This document shows, piece after piece, positions 20,386 through 61,392 of a DNA stretch of 64,000 bases (position 1 is the first letter of the stretch; every line of letters begins with the position of its first letter). The translations under genes and the position numbers were made by a program. The notes beneath the pieces were generated by a model. That model worked only from the letters and a program-made list of their open reading frames with translations. It did not search any database and was not told the DNA's origin. Source of the DNA: Escherichia phage ECO4; sequence record NC_054911.1; one strand, given 5' to 3'.

Positions 20386-20390
20386 AACAA

Positions 20391-20412
20391 AGGGACCTTT
20401 CGGTCCCTTTTT
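20391..20412. terminator. bidirectional terminator between convergent genes 24 and rnlB
   Basis: GGGACC-TTTC-GGTCCC flanked by A-run upstream and T-run downstream. Confidence 0.7.
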
Positions 20413-20414
20413 AT

Positions 20415-21419
20415 TTAGCTCACCAACTCAATCCAAGCCGGACGAAGTACATCTTGTACCATTTTAACTAATTCCTTTTTAATCAAAGAAGGATTATCTG
20501 CTTGAGTTAGAGTAATACCTTCACGAGAAGTTTCTTCCAAAATATCTTGGACAGTTAGCCCCATCACCTTTCCAAAATCCTTTGGACCAATTTCGCCAAT
20601 TTTAGAAATAACGTTATTTACTCGGTTCAGTGTAACGTAACAAGCTAAAATTCCCACCAATTTGTTATCAGCTTCTGACAATTCAACTTTAGCTTTAATA
20701 GGCTTATCAGACTTTTTCTTTTCACTAAATTTAGAATTCTTGCATTTGATGGCTACACGATTGCGATTAGGCAGCCAAGAAGGCTAACAAGGTTTCAATA
20801 CATATCCTTCAGCGGTAAATACTTCGCCTTTGGCTTCGGCATTCCAAACGCATTTATTTGCATCAACTAATCCAGCATGGTCTACTGTAAAATTATAATC
20901 TTGGACGACAGAATCTAAATCATTTGGCAATTTAATAAGCTCTTCAAATTTACCGCGACCTAAAAGTGGAGCCATTTTAAATTTAAATGTATTGCAGAAT
21001 GATTCCATCATATAATCATCGACATAAGTCACGTCACCACTTTCTGTAGTGACAATAATGTCAAATACATAAAAATCTTTATCACCATAATCAACATTCT
21101 TCTGAATGCCAGGTCCAGCGAATTCGCCAAAAACTTGATAAGTCACAACAGCTGAAGTTTCCATAATATCTTGTACTGCTTTAATGGAATCAGCGTAATT
21201 CTTTAGAATAATTTCATACCCAAAGAAATCTTCAGCAGGAAGAATCGGTCCAGTACGTTTAGCGCAAGTTACTTTATCACGCTCAATAATCAATGAGAAA
21301 TTTGTGCCGTGAATCTTTTCACGAGCTACCCATTCGCCGCCAGTCAATCCCAAGCTATAAAGTTTTTCAATAAATTTAGAGTTGTAATGATTTTCAAGAC
21401 TGCTATACTTTTTAAACAT
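20415..21419 (-). pseudogene. rnlB: RNA ligase 2 (rnlB) interrupted by an in-frame amber (TAG) codon at codon 212 of a 334-codon frame
   Basis: Single frame of exactly 335 codons (334 aa + stop, the T4 Rnl2 length) from ATG 21419 to stop 20415; only interruption is TAG at 20784-20786; I translated the 34 codons between fragments and found no other stop; N-terminal part has the ligase KxHG adenylation motif (EKIHGTN). Confidence 0.7.
20784..21419 (-). CDS. rnlB: RNA ligase 2 N-terminal 211-aa truncated product (nucleotidyltransferase region)
   Basis: ORF with GAGGA SD before ATG 21419; ends at the amber codon; remaining 122 codons continue in frame to 20415. Confidence 0.7.
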
Positions 21420-21428
21420 AATTAATCC

Positions 21429-21707
21429 TCAAAATGTAATTTCTAACCAATCACCATCACGCTGATCACTATTGACTTTAAAATTAAATCCTTCTTTTCT
21501 CAGCCAATCACCAATTTCTTCAGTAATCAATTTATCACGAGCAGTACAATAATAACTAAAATATGTTTTACCTTGTTCAGCTGCTTTATTAGCAAGTTCT
21601 GAAAAATCTTTAATAAAACACTCTAGTTTAAACTGTTTACTTTTTAATGCTTTTTCACGTAATTGATTAGCAAAAGATTCATTTTCATAAAGATCATACT
21701 GTTCCAT
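21429..21707 (-). CDS. 24.2: hypothetical protein (position of T4 24.2)
   Basis: 92-aa ORF between rnlB and hoc in T4 order; symbol assigned by synteny. Confidence 0.75.
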   Translation of the reverse strand: MEQYDLYENESFANQLREKALKSKQFKLECFIKDFSELANKAAEQGKTYFSYYCTARDKLITEEIGDWLRKEGFNFKVNSDQRDGDWLEITF

Positions 21708-21909
21708 TTTTCACCTTTTTATTAATGTGTCTTTTTCTATAGACAACTTTTTCTCGAGTCTCAAATTTATTCTTTGCAGTCATAGCTCGAGCCCATAATA
21801 CAGCCACTTCTTTCGCCTGTAAGTTTAATTCACGAGCAATTTCAATGAATGACTTTCCAGACTCATGAAGTGTAAACACCACAACTTCAGTTCTCATAAT
21901 CAATCTCAT
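21694..21909 (-). CDS. 24.3: hypothetical protein (position of T4 24.3)
   Basis: 71-aa ORF overlapping 24.2 start; symbol assigned by synteny. Confidence 0.7.
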   Translation of the reverse strand: MRLIMRTEVVVFTLHESGKSFIEIARELNLQAKEVAVLWARAMTAKNKFETREKVVYRKRHINKKVKNGTV

Positions 21910-21975
21910 GTTATCGAGTTGGTGCCATTATATACATCATTTTCTGATTGTGTTTTGTGTGCTTTCAAAATGAAG

Positions 21976-21996
21976 AAAGGGGCCGAAGCCCCTTTC
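21976..21996 (-). terminator. rho-independent terminator after hoc
   Basis: Coding-strand AGGGGC-TTCG-GCCCCT followed by TTCTTCATTTTG. Confidence 0.65.
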
Positions 21997-35194: not shown

Positions 35195-37251
35195 TACATT
35201 TTGAACTTTTTAGACATTCCGTTGATGTTAACCAAAGAAGCTAAGATTTGAGAAACTTCGTTTTCCTCTTCTTTTGATTCTTCTACAAGGAATTGATTAA
35301 ATCCAGCCATTGGACGAACTTCACCAGTTTCCATTAGATGGTCGCCATCATATACTGATTCTTCTAATTGTTCAGAAGGAGGAACGATTGTACCTTCGAT
35401 TAGATACTTGTTATAAGCAGTTTCTTTCATAAAGTAAGTACTTACTTTATTAATCTTCAGTAAAATTCCACGTGGTAGAATAACTTCAGCTTCTGATGGA
35501 AATCCTGACAAATGACCTGGAACGATAACTTTAACTCGTTCAGCTCCTTTAATTACCATACCCACGCTAGTTTCAGCATCTTCATTAGCATATGTAGAAT
35601 GACTACCCATATGCATCAAATCTTCTGCATCAACGGAACCTTCTCCTTCACCAGAAAATACTGCTCCGGAATCATCTAAGGCCATATAATTTTTACCATA
35701 CTCACCAAAGATATTTGGTTTAAGTGATGTAGATACGAAGTTCTTGAAATAGAACATTTTATTTTCAATGTTATGACGCAAAGTTTTAAAAGTAACTTCT
35801 TGTCCACGGTAAAGTGTAGTTCCTGGAGGAAGAACTGAACCTTTAGCAAACGCAGAATCCATAGTCTCGATGTGCTTAATAGCGCGCTCCATGTATTCTT
35901 CACGTGTAGAATCAGGTTTACCTAAAAGGAATGAGTTCATTTCAACATACGAATCTGCACAATAATCTTCAATTACATCAGATTCAGCCTGAGTCAATCC
36001 TTTTGGAGTTACTTCAGTGCTTGCATATTCATACGCCTGAGCAGCGGATTCATCAATTAATTTATAAATGCCATTCATGACAAATTGAATAATAGCTGTC
36101 TTTTCATCTGGCGTAGCTTTAGAACCTTTAACTAAATCATTGACAATTTTCTTAATAACATCAAAGCTATTAGAAATATTAATGTCAGCAAGATCGCTTA
36201 AAATTTTATCAGTTTTATAATCAAAAAATTCTTTATTCTTTAAATATTCTTGAGAACTTTGATATGTTATATCGCTCTGCAACTTGATAGATGGATCACG
36301 TAAACGTGCATGGGCTAATGCAATATGATTTCGGAAGCTTTCTAGTTCATAATCACTAGATTTAAAACGAGAAGCACTCCTCATACCACCGATAGCTCCT
36401 TTGCCGAAGTTTGAACCAATCTGAATAACGCCAGAGTTCATTGGTCCTTCTGCTTTATATACCGGAACTTTAGATTCAAACTCTTGATATTTCTTAGCAG
36501 CAAAGCTATCACCCTGAAGTGAAGCATCAACAGTAGAATATTGAGCTTGTGCTGCTAATCGACGACTAATTTTAGTTTTCTGAATAACAGCTTGATCCGT
36601 ACGCTTATCATTTTCTAAAGCAATAGAAGCAGCAACTGCGACAGCTTTAGGAACAGCATTACCTGTTTTAACGTCTACATAAACATCACCGACTTTCGAT
36701 TCAACTTTTGTGAATAACTCAGTTGAAATAGGAGGTACACCTGGAATGTCTTCTAAATTGGCATTTTTACGGTAAACCATAATATATGCATATTTCTTAT
36801 CATAGTCCCAGATTTCCTTTAAAAGAACATATCGACCTGCTCCTTTAGTACGTACTAAACGGTCAGCAATAACTTGCATTTGACGAGCAGCGCCATTTGT
36901 TTTACTTTTTAGTACGCGGAATAGGCATGCATCAATTTTATACTGTTTCATTGTTTGAAGAGCAGTATCAAAAACCGCATTAATGACACCAATTGGATTT
37001 CCACCCAAATTTTTAAGCTTAACTAACGATAATTTCTCATTAACACCTATCATTACGATATGCATCATTTTGTCGCCTGGCTTAACGTTTTTATTCGTAT
37101 CACCGCCAGAGGTGTATGTACAAAATCGAAATCCAGGAAGAACGCTTTCTTCACCGGCTTGAATAGCAAAAATTTGAGGTATTTTATGCTTAGGATTTAA
37201 GTTAACAACCGGCGCCGAAGCGCCGTCAAATAATTCTGTAATAAGTTCCAT
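35194..37251 (-). CDS. Alt-family mono-ADP-ribosyltransferase paralogue (685 aa)
   Basis: N-terminus MELITELFDGASAPVVNLNP shared with the upstream paralogue; C-terminal ART signature (Arg in TLYRGQ, STS in FVSTSL, catalytic EAE in EAEVILPRG). Confidence 0.85.
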   Translation of the reverse strand: MELITELFDGASAPVVNLNPKHKIPQIFAIQAGEESVLPGFRFCTYTSGGDTNKNVKPGDKMMHIVMIGVNEKLSLVKLKNLGGNPIGVINAVFDTALQTMKQYKIDACLFRVLKSKTNGAARQMQVIADRLVRTKGAGRYVLLKEIWDYDKKYAYIMVYRKNANLEDIPGVPPISTELFTKVESKVGDVYVDVKTGNAVPKAVAVAASIALENDKRTDQAVIQKTKISRRLAAQAQYSTVDASLQGDSFAAKKYQEFESKVPVYKAEGPMNSGVIQIGSNFGKGAIGGMRSASRFKSSDYELESFRNHIALAHARLRDPSIKLQSDITYQSSQEYLKNKEFFDYKTDKILSDLADINISNSFDVIKKIVNDLVKGSKATPDEKTAIIQFVMNGIYKLIDESAAQAYEYASTEVTPKGLTQAESDVIEDYCADSYVEMNSFLLGKPDSTREEYMERAIKHIETMDSAFAKGSVLPPGTTLYRGQEVTFKTLRHNIENKMFYFKNFVSTSLKPNIFGEYGKNYMALDDSGAVFSGEGEGSVDAEDLMHMGSHSTYANEDAETSVGMVIKGAERVKVIVPGHLSGFPSEAEVILPRGILLKINKVSTYFMKETAYNKYLIEGTIVPPSEQLEESVYDGDHLMETGEVRPMAGFNQFLVEESKEEENEVSQILASLVNINGMSKKFKM

Positions 37252-37254
37252 GAT

Positions 37255-39351
37255 TTATCCTTGAACGAACTTGTAAGGCATGTTTGTAATATCTATGCAA
37301 GACGCAATAATTCCAAGAGATGATTCTACTTTCTGTTTAACATTTGATGAAACAAATGATGCAAAGTCAACTCTATCTTCTATTTCAATATCACCTGTCA
37401 TTGCAACTACTTCACCGGTTTCCATTAAATGGTCTCCGTCATAGATTACCGATTCGGTGAGCTCTTCCGTGGTCATAACTTCAGCTTGAATGAGTTTTGT
37501 ATTATTAGATGTTGTTCCGTCATTATTAGAAGCATCAGTTATTTTATTAACTTTGACCATCAATCCACGCGGTAGAATAACTTCAGCTTCTGTTGCTATT
37601 CCGAGACTTCCTGGATATACAACATTAACTTTATGAGCTCCATCAATTGCCCATCCTATTTGAACTTTAACGTATTCAGGATTTTCTTTATACGCTCTTA
37701 TTTCGTTTGGATTAATAGTTATTCCTTCTTCATTTTTATCAACTGTTAATTCATTGCGAGCTTCTGGTTCTAAAAGACCAATACCAGCATGTGTGATTCC
37801 AAAACGTCCAAAAATGATAGGAGTTAAAGAAGTAGATACAAAATTTCTGAAGTAGAACACTTTATTTTTAACTAACGCTTCATATATAGGAGCAGTCATA
37901 CTTTGAGCACGATAAACTGTAATGCCTTCTGGTATACGGTCACCATTTTCAAAAGCTGAATCTAAGTTATTTATAGCAGATTCAATTTCTTTTTCACTCA
38001 TTACATCATATCGTTCTGGATTGTAACGACCTAAAAGAAGATTATTGATGTCAGTATATCCTGAACCGCAATATTCTCTAATGCCACGCTTTTGTGATGG
38101 AGTATATTTAGAACCATCGCGGGCAATAGTAATATCAATCATTGGACCAGCACCAATTCCAGAAAAACTGTAAATCATTCGTTTGAGGAATTTAGTTTTT
38201 GCTGCGTTCCAGGAATTTTTAGTTATTTCTTCCCAGACTTCATCTGGTTGTCCTTTACGATTTTTATTATGATTAGCAAGCCATTTATCTTTATAATCTT
38301 CAAAGAATTGATTTACAGCTGCTGCGTATTTCTCTAAACATTTTATTGAAGTAGTTGGTTCATTTTTAATTGCATTAAAAATTACTTCTTTAATTTTTTC
38401 TGAAACTTCACCGACTTGACTCATTGGAAAGAATTTATAATCATAGTGAAGTTCATCTGCCGTTCCTTCAGCAATAATTTTTGCTGCCTTTGTTTTAGAA
38501 GCTAATGAATTAATTCCAATTTTCATTTCTTCTGCTTCGGGAATTAAAGGTGCAGTAGCTGGTTTATTAAAATTAGCTGCTGTAGATTCATACTTCTGGA
38601 ATAATTCACTTTCAAATCTAGAAGATTCCAATGACTGACTTTGTGCAATTGCTCTACGGGAAATTTTAACTTTAACGATTACGGCTTGGTCAGAACGTTT
38701 ATCATTTTCTTGTGCAATAGATGCAGCAATTGCCTCATTTTTGGTTACTTGAGCTCCAGTATCTTTATTGATATAAACATCACCGACCTTCGATTCAACT
38801 TTAGTAAAAAGCTCGGTGCTAATTTCTGGAACTCCTGGAATGTCTTCTAGTGATACATTTTTACGATGTATAAGAATATATGCATACTTTTTATCGTAAT
38901 CCCAGAGTTCCTTAAGAAGGACGTATCTGCCACCTGAACGACTGCGGATGAGTCTATCAGCAATAAGTTGAATTTGTCGAGCTTGACCGGCGGTTTTAGA
39001 CTTAAGAATACGAAGCATGCAGGCATCAATTTTATATTGACGCATTGTTTGCATTGCAACAGTAAAAACTGAATTGATATAATTAATCGGGCTTGGACCA
39101 AGACCTTTTAATTTAGCAATTGAACCTTTAGCAGTTAATGTAAAAGGAACAATGTGCATCATTTTATCGCCCATCTTTAAATCACGATTAGTATCACCTC
39201 CAGATGTATAGGTACATAAACGAAAGCCTGGTTGTTCAATTGCATCATCAACATGAACTGAAAAAATTTGTGGTATTTTCTTCTTTGGATTTAAGTTTGT
39301 AATCGGAAGAGTAGTATCTTCGTCAAATAATTCTGTAATGAGTTCCATCAT
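37255..39351 (-). CDS. alt: Alt ADP-ribosyltransferase (698 aa), packaged internal head protein
   Basis: N-terminus MMELITELFDEDTTLPITNLNP; R-S-E ART motifs (TVYRAQ, FVSTSL, EAEVILPRG); late TATAAATA promoter upstream; position next to gene 30. Confidence 0.88.
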   Translation of the reverse strand: MMELITELFDEDTTLPITNLNPKKKIPQIFSVHVDDAIEQPGFRLCTYTSGGDTNRDLKMGDKMMHIVPFTLTAKGSIAKLKGLGPSPINYINSVFTVAMQTMRQYKIDACMLRILKSKTAGQARQIQLIADRLIRSRSGGRYVLLKELWDYDKKYAYILIHRKNVSLEDIPGVPEISTELFTKVESKVGDVYINKDTGAQVTKNEAIAASIAQENDKRSDQAVIVKVKISRRAIAQSQSLESSRFESELFQKYESTAANFNKPATAPLIPEAEEMKIGINSLASKTKAAKIIAEGTADELHYDYKFFPMSQVGEVSEKIKEVIFNAIKNEPTTSIKCLEKYAAAVNQFFEDYKDKWLANHNKNRKGQPDEVWEEITKNSWNAAKTKFLKRMIYSFSGIGAGPMIDITIARDGSKYTPSQKRGIREYCGSGYTDINNLLLGRYNPERYDVMSEKEIESAINNLDSAFENGDRIPEGITVYRAQSMTAPIYEALVKNKVFYFRNFVSTSLTPIIFGRFGITHAGIGLLEPEARNELTVDKNEEGITINPNEIRAYKENPEYVKVQIGWAIDGAHKVNVVYPGSLGIATEAEVILPRGLMVKVNKITDASNNDGTTSNNTKLIQAEVMTTEELTESVIYDGDHLMETGEVVAMTGDIEIEDRVDFASFVSSNVKQKVESSLGIIASCIDITNMPYKFVQG

Positions 39352-46920: not shown

Positions 46921-47156
46921 AGTACGCCATACACCCTTTGTGCTTCAACTAATCCATCAAAATCTAATTTAAGATGCGATATTTGATCGCCATCACCTGG
47001 ATTCACAATTACTAATACTGAACGAGGAGTTTCAGTAATAACACGAACCGATGTTTCAGGAAATCGTTCAGAAACCTTATTTACCAATTCCTGCGCAAAT
47101 AGCTTAACTTTTTCTTGGAATTCTTTAACAGTAATCGGTTTTTCACTTAGCAGCAT
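46917..47156 (-). CDS. cd.2: hypothetical protein
   Basis: 79-aa ORF; early promoter plus stem-loop upstream; symbol by synteny. Confidence 0.65.
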   Translation of the reverse strand: MLLSEKPITVKEFQEKVKLFAQELVNKVSERFPETSVRVITETPRSVLVIVNPGDGDQISHLKLDFDGLVEAQRVYGVL

Positions 47157-47185
47157 TTTGTTTTCCTCATTTGTTTGGTAGAGCT

Positions 47186-47215
47186 ATAATATCACAACTC
47201 TACCGTAAAGTAAAC
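47186..47215 (-). promoter_or_regulatory. T4 early-type promoter with overlapping stem-loop (PeSL-like) upstream of cd.2
   Basis: GTTTAC, 18 nt, TATTAT; inverted repeat GGTAGAG...CTCTACC spans the -10. Confidence 0.5.
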
Positions 47216-47217
47216 TA

Positions 47218-47523
47218 TTAAATTGCTTTGAATTCTGATGTCTGTGATTCAAAACGAATGTCGCCTTTGATAACTAGCTCAGCATCAAGACCGAATACAA
47301 CAATGATATGCGCGGAACCTGGATACAACGTGATGGCAACAGAATCCACCTGGTCTGGAAGCAAAGTGTTCAATACATGAGTCACTTGAGCATGAATTCG
47401 AAGCTCGGCTGCGTTATCAAGCTTTTCAAACATATTATTAGCGATAATTTGACTAAACACTACTTCTACAATTTTAGAATAAGTCGGAAACATATTTACC
47501 TCACATAATTTTCTTCGAGCCAA
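47218..47523 (-). CDS. cd.3: hypothetical protein
   Basis: 101-aa ORF; symbol by synteny. Confidence 0.65.
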   Translation of the reverse strand: MARRKLCEVNMFPTYSKIVEVVFSQIIANNMFEKLDNAAELRIHAQVTHVLNTLLPDQVDSVAITLYPGSAHIIVVFGLDAELVIKGDIRFESQTSEFKAI

Positions 47524-52136: not shown

Positions 52137-53315
52137 TTAAAAGTATTTTTTAAAACTCATCATAACTTTATCATCAACATCATTATCAATCTGTGCAACA
52201 AGATAAGATGACAGTTCTACTTCTTGCGGCGCGGATTGAACATTATCAGAATTAAGGTATTCACGAATCCAAGGATATGGATGTTTAACCGGAGCATCGG
52301 TAATCGGGCATGGAAGACCACACTGTTTCATACGAGATACAGTTAAGTAATCAATAAAGCTCCACATGCTATTTGTATTTAATCCAGGAACATCGCCATC
52401 TTTAAATAAATGAACTGCCCAATCTTTTTCTTGGCGGTTAACTTCCATGAAAATATCAACTGCTTCTTGTTCACACTCTTTGGCAATTTTAACCCATTCA
52501 TCGCCATCAGTACCAGATTGAAGTTGACGAATAATATATTGTGTACCTTTAAGATGAAGCTGCTCATCACGTGCAATAAATTTCATAATCTTCGCATTAC
52601 CTTCCATGATTTCCATGTTCTTATGGAAGTTGAAAGTACATGCAAAGGATACATAAAAACGAATAGCTTCCAATGCGTTGATTACATGCAGACAAAGGTA
52701 AAGAGAACGCATTAGTTCGTATTTGCATTCTTCTACATGCATAAGGCTATTTGAATATGCGTCCAAATCATATTCATTCTCTGAAAAACACCTAAAAATT
52801 TCTTTTGCGTTTTCCCATTCACGAGTTTTCTCAATAACATCATCATAATAACGACCAATAGATTCAGCACGTTTCATGATAGCTTTATCTAATACAATCT
52901 CATCAAATACCTTTGACGGATCAGTATAAAGATTTCGCATGATATGAGTATATGAACGACTGTGAATAGTTTCACTAAAAGTCCATGTAGCAACCCATGT
53001 ATCAAGGCTTGGATCTGAAATTAATGACATAAGTACAGCAGACGGTGCACGACCCTGAATGCTATCTAAAAGTGATTGATACTTCAGGTTATTAGTAAAA
53101 ATATCTTGCTGATACTGGGGAAGCTTGTTAAATTGTGCAGCATCCATCATCAAGTTTACTTCTTCAGGACGCCAGAAAAAACTGATCTGCCGCTCAATGA
53201 GTTCTTCAAATACTCGATGTCGTTGAATATCATATCGAGCTAAACCTAATCCAGAACCAAAGAACATTGGTTCGTTCAAAACATCGACTTGTTGTGTATT
53301 AAAAACTGTACTCAT
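52137..53315 (-). CDS. nrdB: ribonucleotide reductase small subunit NrdB, intronless
   Basis: Continuous 392-aa ORF with R2 diiron/tyrosyl-radical fold features; no intron interruption (T4 reference has one). Confidence 0.95.
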   Translation of the reverse strand: MSTVFNTQQVDVLNEPMFFGSGLGLARYDIQRHRVFEELIERQISFFWRPEEVNLMMDAAQFNKLPQYQQDIFTNNLKYQSLLDSIQGRAPSAVLMSLISDPSLDTWVATWTFSETIHSRSYTHIMRNLYTDPSKVFDEIVLDKAIMKRAESIGRYYDDVIEKTREWENAKEIFRCFSENEYDLDAYSNSLMHVEECKYELMRSLYLCLHVINALEAIRFYVSFACTFNFHKNMEIMEGNAKIMKFIARDEQLHLKGTQYIIRQLQSGTDGDEWVKIAKECEQEAVDIFMEVNRQEKDWAVHLFKDGDVPGLNTNSMWSFIDYLTVSRMKQCGLPCPITDAPVKHPYPWIREYLNSDNVQSAPQEVELSSYLVAQIDNDVDDKVMMSFKKYF

Positions 53316-54010
53316 TTAGAATCCTTAAATTTACATTTATCATAATGCCATCTTAGAGCATTGCCTTTATTAACTTTCTTGCCACAATGCGGACAAGGTG
53401 GATATTCAGTACTTTGCTTAGTTCTCAAAGAAATCAAATCACGAGTTTCTTTAGTATGAGGAACATCTCTTGTTGGAGATATTGTACCATACATAGGATT
53501 AAGCACGCCGACTTTAGCAGCAGCTATATTCTTTTTAGCTTCTTCAGTTTTAGGCTTTCTCATCTTTTTCTTAGTTTCTTCGCTTTTAGCCCTTCCTTTG
53601 GTTGCCGCCGATATTTTGTGTTTGGTTTCTTCTGTTAAACGCAGACCTGTTTTCGCTTTTGACATTTTCAGTCTCGTTTCTTCAGAAATGACCGTACCTT
53701 TGCGAAATTGTGAATTTAACTTCTTTGCATGGGCATATATTTTAGAATGAACTTTATAATGACGTTTCTTAGTTCCTTTCATATTGCACATCATGAAAAA
53801 TGCGAATATAACAGATTTTACCGGATAAATCTTTGATAAAATAGCATGCGCTATAAAATGTTCTCTAGCTGTTAATTCAACTAAATTTTCTTTATCATCA
53901 GAACCTCCCATGCATCTAGGAACTATATGATGTGTCTCTTTATATTCAGATAAAGGTTCCCGAGCCTGAGCTCGGGAAATTAGGTCGTTATAGATTTTTT
54001 GATAATTCAT
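53312..54010 (-). CDS. mobE: HNH homing endonuclease between nrdA and nrdB (MobE-like)
   Basis: 232-aa ORF; HNH motif ETHHIVPRCMGGSDDKENLVELTAREHFIAH; repeated basic EET+xK+S..KG modules; start and stop overlap nrdA stop and nrdB start. Confidence 0.85.
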   Translation of the reverse strand: MNYQKIYNDLISRAQAREPLSEYKETHHIVPRCMGGSDDKENLVELTAREHFIAHAILSKIYPVKSVIFAFFMMCNMKGTKKRHYKVHSKIYAHAKKLNSQFRKGTVISEETRLKMSKAKTGLRLTEETKHKISAATKGRAKSEETKKKMRKPKTEEAKKNIAAAKVGVLNPMYGTISPTRDVPHTKETRDLISLRTKQSTEYPPCPHCGKKVNKGNALRWHYDKCKFKDSK

Positions 54011-56831: not shown

Positions 56832-57143
56832 TTACACCGCCATCTTTCCTTTAATTGGCGGGTGAGATACATAGTTGTTAAGAACAAAATTATGCGGCTT
56901 TGCGAATTGACTCAACCAAAATACCTGTGATTCTGTACCCCATTCATCGAATTCATCTGGAAATTTTAATTGCAATTCGCATAAATCCATAGGTTCACGA
57001 CGCAAAATTTCTTTACATTGTTCTACGTGATTCATATAGATATGAGTATTACCACCAGAAAATATCAAATCTCCCGGAATAAGATTACACATCTTAGCTA
57101 CAATATGAACTAACGTAGCATATGATGCAATATTAAATGGAAG
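56832..57143 (-). CDS. td: thymidylate synthase, exon 2 (103 codons)
   Basis: Begins LPFNIASYA (conserved TS motif) immediately after the intron 3' end; joins exon 1 in frame to give 286 aa. Confidence 0.93.
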   Translation of the reverse strand, partial: LPFNIASYATLVHIVAKMCNLIPGDLIFSGGNTHIYMNHVEQCKEILRREPMDLCELQLKFPDEFDEWGTESQVFWLSQFAKPHNFVLNNYVSHPPIKGKMAV

Positions 57144-58159
57144 CATTATGTTCAGATAAGGTCGTTAATCTTACCCCGGAATTATATCCAGCTGCATGTC
57201 ACCATGCAGATCAGACTATATCTCCAACTTGTTAAAGCAAGTTGTCTATCGTTTCGAGTCACTTGACCCTACTCCCCAAAGGGATAGTCGTTAGGCATTT
57301 ATGTAGAACCAATTCCATTTATCAGATTTTACACGATAAGTAACTAATCCAGACGAAATTTTAAAATGTCTAGCTGCATCTGCTGCACAATCAAAAATAA
57401 CCCCATCACATGAAATCTTTTTAATATTACTAGGCTTTTTACCTTTCATCTTTTCTGATATTTTAGATTTAGTTATGTCTGAATGCTTATGATTAAAGAA
57501 TGAATTATTTTCACCTGAACGATTTCTGCATTTACTACAAGTATAAGCAGAAGTTTGTATGCGAACACCGCACTTACAAAACTTATGGGTTTCTGGATTC
57601 CAACGCCCGTTTTTACTTCCGGGTTTACTGTAAAGAGCTTTCCGACCATCAGGTCCAAGTTTAAGCATCTTAGCTTTAACAGTTTCAGAACGTTTCTTAA
57701 TAATTTCTTCTTTTAATGGATGCGTAGAACATGTATCACCAAACGTTGCATCAGCAATATTGTATCCATTAATTTTAGAATTAAGCTCTTTAATCCAAAA
57801 ATTTTCTCGTTCAATAATCAAATCTTTCTCATATGGAATTTCTTCCAAAATAGAACATTCAAACACATTACCATGTTTGTTAAAAGACCTCTGAAGCTTT
57901 ATAGAAGAATGGCATCCTTTTTCTAAATCTTTAAAATGCCTCTTCCATCTCTTTTCAAAATCTTTAGCACTTCCTACATATACTTTATTGTTTAAAGTAT
58001 TTTTAATCTGATAAATTCCGCTTTTCATAAATACCTCTTTAAATATAGAAGTATTTATTAAAGGGCAGTCCTACAATTTAGCACGGGATTGTCTACTAGA
58101 GAGGTTCCCCGTTTAGATAGATTACAAGTATAAGTCACCTTATACTCAGGCCTCAATTA
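57144..58159 (-). ncRNA. group I self-splicing intron of td (1016 nt)
   Basis: 5' end TAATTGAGGCCTGAGTATAAGGTGAC directly after exon-1 ...TTGGGT, 3' end ...GAACATAATG before exon 2; matches the T4 td intron I recall; contains the I-TevI ORF. Confidence 0.92.
57291..58028 (-). CDS. I-TevI: intron-encoded GIY-YIG homing endonuclease I-TevI
   Basis: 245-aa ORF, MKSGIYQIKNTLNNKVYVGSAKDFEKRWKRH, recognised as I-TevI; located inside the td intron. Confidence 0.96.
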   Translation of the reverse strand: MKSGIYQIKNTLNNKVYVGSAKDFEKRWKRHFKDLEKGCHSSIKLQRSFNKHGNVFECSILEEIPYEKDLIIERENFWIKELNSKINGYNIADATFGDTCSTHPLKEEIIKKRSETVKAKMLKLGPDGRKALYSKPGSKNGRWNPETHKFCKCGVRIQTSAYTCSKCRNRSGENNSFFNHKHSDITKSKISEKMKGKKPSNIKKISCDGVIFDCAADAARHFKISSGLVTYRVKSDKWNWFYINA

Positions 58160-58708
58160 ACCCAAGAAAACATCTACTGATCGTTGATACCACTGCAAAT
58201 CCAAATAGCCATTACGCACATTAAACTGATAGAACATATGACAGGGCGGTAATGCCATTTGATTGATTTCAGCTGGATTCCATGCAGAAACAATTTGACG
58301 CCTATCATTTGGCAGTTTTTTAATACGATCAATAACTTCTATAATTTGATCTACACCGCCAAAATCACGCCACTGTTTTCCATAAATTGGACCAAGTTCA
58401 CCGCTATGGTATCCTAAATCTTTTGCTTGATTTTCGTAATTTTCATCCCAGACTGTTTTGCCTTGAATTAATGAATCGTGCTGAATTAATCGTAAATCAT
58501 TGACATTTGTGCTTCCTGATAAAAACCAAAGCAGCTCAGCAATGCAAGCTTTCCAGGCGAGCTTCTTAGTTGTTACCGCAGGAAAACCTTTAGTTAAATC
58601 CCAGCGTAATTTAGTACCAAACAAAGCAATTGTTCCTGTGCCTGTTCGGTCATCGGTTTCATAGCCATTTTCAAAAATGTCTTTAATTAAATCTTGGTAT
58701 TGTTTCAT
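58160..58708 (-). CDS. td: thymidylate synthase, exon 1 (183 codons)
   Basis: MKQYQDLIKDIFENGYETDDRTGTGT...PPCHMFYQF (TS active-site region); ends ...VDVFLG at the 5' splice site. Confidence 0.95.
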
Positions 58709-60959: not shown

Positions 60960-61346
60960 TTAGGCCTTAAAAGTTTTTCGCAAAAGTTCAATGATTTCAT
61001 CTACATTGTTTTCGTCAACAATGCAGTGAATTTTTGTTACGCCAGAAACTATACCTTCATTAGCGGATTGAGGCTTTTCTAAAGTTACCTCAGTAAAGTA
61101 TTTGAATTCTTCAGGGTAAATCTCAAAATACGTCTCAAGTGGGCCACCCGCCATGTATTCAGTGCCGTCTTCCATAGTTACACGTACCACACAGTCACCA
61201 GCACAATCATCACTTTCCATTTCATCTACAACAAAACTAGGTCCGTGCTTCTCTATTAAATTTAGCATCATTACATTGCAACGGCACTCGTTAGCAAAGT
61301 CATTTTTAAATAAAGGGTTAATGATATAAGTTTTTCCAACTTCCAC
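60960..61346 (-). CDS. hypothetical acidic protein; probable GTG start
   Basis: 128-aa ORF; GAGGA SD 7 nt before GTG 61346; first in-frame ATG is 25 codons in. Confidence 0.55.
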   Translation of the reverse strand: MEVGKTYIINPLFKNDFANECRCNVMMLNLIEKHGPSFVVDEMESDDCAGDCVVRVTMEDGTEYMAGGPLETYFEIYPEEFKYFTEVTLEKPQSANEGIVSGVTKIHCIVDENNVDEIIELLRKTFKA

Positions 61347-61392
61347 TTTGATTTCCTCATTTTAACGGGGCTATCAAATAGCCCCTTGATAA

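Follow-up and report, generated by a model that had tools for sequence, protein, structure and literature searches.

Introduction

In the public record of Escherichia phage ECO4, a Tequatrovirus (species Tequatrovirus ec04, RefSeq NC_054911), two separate coding sequences are each annotated as 'RNA ligase', one of 211 aa (ASZ77301.1 / YP_010068411.1) and one of 88 aa (ASZ77300.1 / YP_010068410.1). Both lie in a frame that shares its length (334 aa) and its position, between gene 24 and 24.2 / 24.3 / hoc, with rnlB (24.1) of phage T4, the gene encoding RNA ligase 2 (Rnl2; PDB 2hvq, 2hvr, 2hvs, 1s68). The question raised by this locus is whether the two entries represent a single broken gene and, if so, whether the break is real, how recently it arose, and what remains of the encoded enzyme. 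A first-pass annotation of the 64-kb stretch of ECO4 DNA analyzed here (hereafter, the window) had proposed that a continuous 335-codon rnlB frame is split by one TAG codon at 20784-20786, and that the lesion is recent, suppressed, or an error.

An in-frame amber codon within rnlB

Retranslation bore out all of the coordinates and counts in that proposal. Specifically, the minus strand from 21419 to 20415 reads as 335 codons, the sole internal stop being TAG at codon 212 (20786-20784) and the terminal stop being TAA (20417-20415), and the 122 codons downstream of the amber are, as had been stated, intact and free of stops. Within this frame, the list of open reading frames contains a 211-aa ORF beginning with ATG (20784-21419) and an 88-aa ORF beginning with TTG (20415-20681). 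The features of the locus are as follows.

20389-20410, both strands: bidirectional intrinsic-terminator-like hairpin between rnlB and gene 24, with a 9-bp stem
20415-21419, minus strand: rnlB frame, T4 RNA ligase 2 orthologue, of 334 sense-codon positions plus TAA, interrupted at codon 212 (translation, match to PDB 2hvq, TIGR02307, Pfam, synteny)
20454-20684, minus strand: part coding for T4_Rnl2_C (PF18043, 87.4 bits), covered by the 88-aa TTG ORF at 20415-20681
20739-20747, minus strand: codons for the motif V lysines K225 and K227, 3' of the stop and untranslated (codon positions; role from PMC3149579)
20784-20786, minus strand: in-frame amber TAG, codon 212, which is TAT (Tyr) in relatives (base-by-base comparison, 30-nt probes)
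20787-21419, minus strand: 211 sense codons of the truncated product, with motifs I, III and IV kept (PF09414 positions 2-157 of 171; ASZ77301.1 / YP_010068411.1)
21429-21909, minus strand: genes 24.2 and 24.3, upstream in the rnlB unit, with proteins 100% identical to those of phage AR1 (ORFs, tblastn)
21975-21996, minus strand: terminator-like hairpin after hoc, preceding the 24.3-24.2-rnlB unit (terminator search)

Several lines of evidence agree with the earlier identification of this gene as rnlB. When codon 212 is read as X, the repaired frame aligns end to end with T4 Rnl2 (PDB 2hvq, 1s68; E = 8e-224), a match that is far above chance, and the T4 residue facing the stop in the 2hvq alignment is Tyr. 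The repaired protein scores 458.7 bits against TIGR02307, the NCBIfam equivalog profile for Rnl2 (cut-off 197.15 bits), across profile positions 1-326, and the gene order 24 / rnlB / 24.2 / 24.3 / hoc is the same in AR1. At the nucleotide level the ECO4 and T4 genes are 96.2% identical, and the T4 motif residues K35, E99, E204, K209, K225, and K227 are all conserved in the ECO4 frame. ECO4 differs from T4 in having TAG rather than TAT (Tyr) at codon 212, as well as in S93T, R217P, and G219R, which are ordinary polymorphisms common to many other Tequatroviruses; R217P and G219R are also present in the close relatives SfPhi01, AR1, and ESH35.

Content and expected activity of the truncated product

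The two pieces of the frame divide the domains of the enzyme between them. TIGR02307 matches the 211-aa piece alone at positions 1-199 of 326 (288.9 bits) and the downstream piece at positions 204-326 (153.4 bits), while Pfam assigns the first to RNA_ligase (PF09414, positions 2-157 of 171) and the second to T4_Rnl2_C (PF18043). As had been noted previously, the KxHG motif is retained and the C-terminal domain is not: the motif I lysine (KxHGxN; K35 within EKIHGTN, 21317-21315) lies in the translated part, together with E99 of motif III and E204 and K209 of motif IV, while the Rnl2-specific domain PF18043 is encoded only 3' of the stop and is not joined to the 211-aa product. The codons for the motif V lysines K225 and K227 likewise persist in the DNA and, following the TAG at codon 212, are absent from the translated polypeptide. 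By these profile matches, ECO4 rnlB is a member of the Rnl2 family whose predicted product is not a complete ligase.

A useful comparison is offered by Rnl2(1-249), the 'T4 Rnl2 truncated' reagent, which resembles the ECO4 product in being a C-terminal truncation devoid of the C-terminal domain. Rnl2 residues 1-249 compose the full adenylyltransferase domain, and this protein still performs steps 1 and 3 (PMC3884662, PMC3149579) but is unable to seal nicks, step 2 being dependent on the C-terminal domain (PMC3884662). In contrast to Rnl2(1-249), which keeps motif V, the ECO4 product stops 38 residues earlier and is without it, such that even these partial activities should be lacking. In adenylylation of the enzyme, K225 and K227 act as key catalytic residues (PMC3149579), and since both motif V and the C-terminal domain are missing, the 1-211 fragment would be expected to be inactive, with neither self-adenylylation nor the ATP-dependent nick sealing (3'-OH/5'-PO4, duplex RNA) of the family, and is probably misfolded or unstable. 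Separate expression of the C-terminal domain appears unlikely, as no Shine-Dalgarno-like sequence was seen by eye 5' of the downstream TTG or GTG codons.

Origin and uniqueness of the amber allele

SfPhi01 and ESH35 (99.4% identity over 1251 nt), followed by AR1 and wV7 (99.2%), are the nearest deposited relatives. Base-by-base comparison reveals that codon 212 is TAT (Tyr) in SfPhi01, AR1, and ESH35, and that the lesion is a single T->G change on the coding strand at 20784 (C on the plus strand), converting Tyr-212 to amber. Only four of 1005 bases differ between the rnlB genes of ECO4 and ESH35, three of them synonymous and the fourth the base creating the TAG. A protein with Tyr put back at this codon (334 aa) shows no difference from Rnl2 of the Shigella phages ESH35 and Sf23 (100% identity), and that sequence is found on 11 contigs.

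The distribution of the allele was examined with 30-nt probes carrying codon 212 at their center; as megablast requires an exact 28-mer, the TAG probe matches only records bearing the G. Among 50,697 phage records this probe yielded no matches, in comparison to 171 matching records for the equivalent TAT probe, and the exact TAG-bearing 23-mer is absent from IMG/VR. The TAG allele is known from one deposited genome, ECO4 itself, in which it is present on one contig. These searches rule out a truncation shared with close relatives, and neither they nor the loci surveyed below revealed any relative whose rnlB ends at residue 211, the finding that would have pointed to a natural terminus.

The absence of other amino acid changes and the presence of only three synonymous differences from ESH35 indicate that the lesion is either very recent or an error. 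The options listed in the first-pass annotation were the right ones, and they can now be narrowed to these two; reassignment of TAG is discarded on evidence given below.

A separate observation concerns the sequence in which the substitution lies. With the T->G change at 20784, ATCC-TTCTT-GGCT becomes AGCC-TTCTT-GGCT, whose arms form a perfect inverted repeat of 4 bp (20776-20788, minus strand). The change could represent a quasi-palindrome (template-switch) correction, although the stem is short and may be a coincidence.

rnlB in related phages

Surveys of related loci found rnlB intact in 12 of 13 IMG/VR loci (L017 alone is broken, by a 1-nt deletion at approximately codon 222), in all 10 complete metagenomic copies, and in all 60 phage records sampled evenly from 684 matching records, including ESh34 and GiZh, in which the gene is unannotated and the ORFs are intact. 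To judge from these counts, rnlB is normally maintained by purifying selection in nature, and a stable null allele of natural origin is accordingly unlikely. Such selection fits a lesion acquired around the time of isolation, and it fits an error equally well.

Broken copies of rnlB do nonetheless occur in other isolates. In vB_EcoM_ACG-C40 (NC_019399), an intact 1005-nt frame carries W215 TGG->TGA, an allele confined to that phage, and in vB_EcoM_DalCa (NC_054908), in which codon 212 encodes Cys, G283 is altered from GGA to TGA. Both phages resemble ECO4 in that an intact 1005-nt frame contains one in-frame stop created by a single substitution, and in that rnlB is annotated as two 'RNA ligase' coding sequences; they differ from ECO4 (Y212 TAG) in the codon affected, the type of stop, and the haplotype. 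Given the differing haplotypes, the three alleles are independent events, and spontaneous knockouts of rnlB predicted in single isolates do recur. A protein-cluster look-up identified other lesions in SV76 rnlB.

The ECO4 and ACG-C40 stops are three codons apart, a proximity with a chance probability of approximately 0.015, a figure calculated post hoc from n = 2, while the third nonsense allele, at codon 283 of DalCa, lies 71 codons away. For these reasons a hotspot at codons 212-215 is not claimed. Fragment proteins had also suggested a mobile-element or homing target at codons 212-216; no consistent site was found, and the idea was dropped because the lesions are scattered, with the Rnl2 fragment of P0021 arising from a different rearrangement at approximately residue 130, the DalCa stop at codon 283, and the L017 deletion at approximately codon 222.

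Tequatrovirus Rnl2 proteins that share approximately 99% identity elsewhere are hypervariable at residues 216-219 (20760-20775), which lie in the loop separating motifs IV and V. Variants at this position include LPNR, LRNG, LHNG, MPNG, and MHNS (loci including L005, L008, L009, L020, L021, and L031), and across 13 sequences codons 212-219 hold 5 of the 19 codons at which the amino acid varies. Mosaicism is also seen in this part of the gene: GiZh rnlB begins with a divergent N-terminal part and changes to T4-type sequence for its C-terminal part at approximately codon 220, and the rnlB of L010 switches to an RB69-like C-terminus at approximately codon 243. A metagenomic contig, L023 (PPYE01646705.1), ends approximately 7 nt past rnlB codon 212, which may be an assembly break resulting from strain variation in the adjoining hypervariable patch.

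Divided annotation extends to another gene of the region. The hoc gene is represented by two annotated coding sequences in SfPhi01 (L001, 1133-2552) and in ACG-C40 (L005, 7128-8259), while ECO4 encodes an intact Hoc of 472 aa; accessory genes that are split are hence no rarity among deposited T4-like genomes.

Quality of the consensus and use of TAG within the window

Comparison of approximately 85 AR1 proteins with the window by tblastn revealed an internal stop in rnlB only, with about 80 other genes compared clean and no unexplained frameshift among the genes compared; td was recovered in two pieces, split by its intron. Many ECO4 proteins are 100% identical to their AR1 counterparts, and the consensus looks to be of high quality across the 64-kb window. 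An error-prone assembly, or a laboratory strain carrying multiple ambers, is rejected on the grounds that rnlB alone of the approximately 85 genes contains an internal stop and that every frame break is accounted for.

Among genes in the window that matched at full length, TAA serves as the terminal stop in 55, TGA in 23, and TAG in 3. The TAG-terminated genes are gp15, uvsY.-2, and one copy of alt, each of the same length as in AR1; by this usage in three conserved genes TAG is an ordinary terminator, and its reassignment is rejected. No tRNA genes are present within the window, the T4-type tRNA cluster lying outside it. A 101-nt segment around the TAG and 3' of it showed no unusual RNA structure (fold z = -0.25), and a structure stimulating read-through is rejected on that value.

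Dispensability of rnlB and explanations for the lesion

As the last gene of the minus-strand unit 24.3-24.2-rnlB, rnlB is followed directly by the terminator-like hairpin, such that a stop within it would have no polar effect on other genes. Data bearing on dispensability come from a transposon map of T4, in the supplementary files of which rnlB is hit at 84 of 84 TA sites and classed 'Non-essential' (bioRxiv 10.1101/2025.11.20.689424). In the two HIDEN-SEQ condition comparisons retrieved from the same source, T4 rnlB insertions are neither enriched nor depleted (log2 fold change of approximately 0), and in the retrieved files the Bas37 orthologue behaves in the same manner (bioRxiv 10.1101/2025.11.20.689424).

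The explanation we favor, with a probability of roughly 0.7, is that the sequenced ECO4 stock carries a real, very recent, and selectively neutral rnlB null allele. According to this explanation, a TAT->TAG point mutation (Tyr-212 to amber) would have arisen very recently in the ECO4 stock, and translation would halt after residue 211, leaving motifs I-IV, including the AMP-accepting K35. The motif V strand (K225, K227), which completes the adenylyltransferase active site, would be lost together with the whole C-terminal domain, and the phage would tolerate the loss since growth on laboratory E. coli does not require rnlB and polarity is absent.

We infer that the base is real and not miscalled, and the principal competitor of the favored explanation is an error of sequencing or consensus, or a minority variant called as consensus, with the true ECO4 possessing TAT and a functional rnlB. 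The singleton status of the allele, found on one contig of one deposited genome and in none of the other collections searched, the lack of accompanying amino acid changes in a frame whose repaired product is a common natural protein, and the integrity of rnlB almost everywhere else all speak for an error, the first and the last of them also against a real null, and both the singleton status and the otherwise perfect frame are equally well accounted for by an error. An error is nevertheless the less likely of the two given the clean consensus, in which some 80 other genes, many with products identical to those of AR1, lack internal stops and unexplained frameshifts. Assemblies contain fewer substitution errors than indel errors, and in deep-coverage consensus sequences substitution errors are rare. 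ACG-C40 and DalCa, moreover, carry comparable single nonsense changes, as real neutral knockouts would. An error consequently retains a minor share of the probability, well below that of the real allele.

Two further explanations accept the amber as real, and both seem very improbable, with nothing positive supporting either. Full-length Rnl2 might still be made by means of an amber suppressor in the host, a suppressor tRNA of the phage, or leaky read-through of UAG-C, C after UAG being a weak termination context in E. coli. A tyrosine-inserting host suppressor would restore the wild-type protein exactly, and several other inserted residues might be tolerated at position 212, which varies among homologues (Tyr, Phe, Ile, Val, and Cys in DalCa). 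The unchanged 122 downstream codons would fit suppression but are equally expected from recency alone; the absence of a tRNA gene from the window, the termination of three conserved genes by TAG at their AR1 lengths, which argues against recoding, and the unremarkable fold around the stop all weigh against suppression, which, with rnlB dispensable, is not needed to explain survival of the phage. Alternatively, loss of rnlB might have been favored on the isolation host, for instance if it let the phage evade a defence by which Rnl2 is sensed or exploited. Such selection would fit the finding, in Tequatrovirus isolates, of three independent alleles with a single nonsense change, two of which lie within four codons of each other in the motif IV-V loop, but the third allele is distant, each allele is confined to one phage, the proximity statistic was noticed after the fact with n = 2, and insertions in rnlB show neither enrichment nor depletion in the retrieved HIDEN-SEQ comparisons. 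Reports of rnlB triggering a defence were sought in the literature, and none was found. If selected loss were true, it would offer the first way into the biological role that Rnl2 plays.

Other features of the window

Several additional features of the window merit description. The td gene is split into exons at 58708-58157 and 57146-56832 on the minus strand (region 56832-58708), between which lies a 245-aa ORF of the GIY-YIG type (57291-58028) that starts MKSGIYQIKN, like I-TevI. This arrangement looks like the classic td group I intron; at the gathering threshold, Rfam returned no match in the window. A 232-aa minus-strand ORF (53312-54010) with an HNH-like motif (HHIVPRCMGG...), lying between nrdA and nrdB at a site without a gene in AR1, is probably a free-standing homing endonuclease of the MobE type. 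The adjoining nrdB is only 89.8% identical to that of AR1, which may reflect a co-conversion tract.

Two tandem alt (ADP-ribosyltransferase) paralogues of approximately 685 aa each occupy 35197-39348 on the minus strand; they are approximately 41% identical to each other's AR1 counterparts, and the same arrangement occurs in AR1, wV7, and RB51. AR1 has a gene of 176 aa, ar1_225, between cd.2 and cd.3 that the ECO4 window lacks (47156-47221), and frd.2 (60963-61355) shares only 46% identity with the corresponding AR1 protein; both are, as far as these comparisons go, typical mosaic differences in accessory genes.

Implications

Public sources already contain the gene family, this type of lesion, and the divided annotation; that the gene is broken is not flagged in the ECO4 record. 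The probable loss of rnlB in ECO4 is ordinary, and it matters little, being mainly a point of annotation: the two ECO4 'RNA ligase' entries represent one broken gene, for which a pseudogene label or a recheck is due. What Rnl2 does during infection has yet to be established (PMC3884662), and ECO4 constitutes a naturally occurring candidate for an rnlB-null T4-like phage. Together with ACG-C40 and DalCa, it offers free material with which to test for hosts or defences where Rnl2, through what is for now a hypothetical phenotype, would matter.
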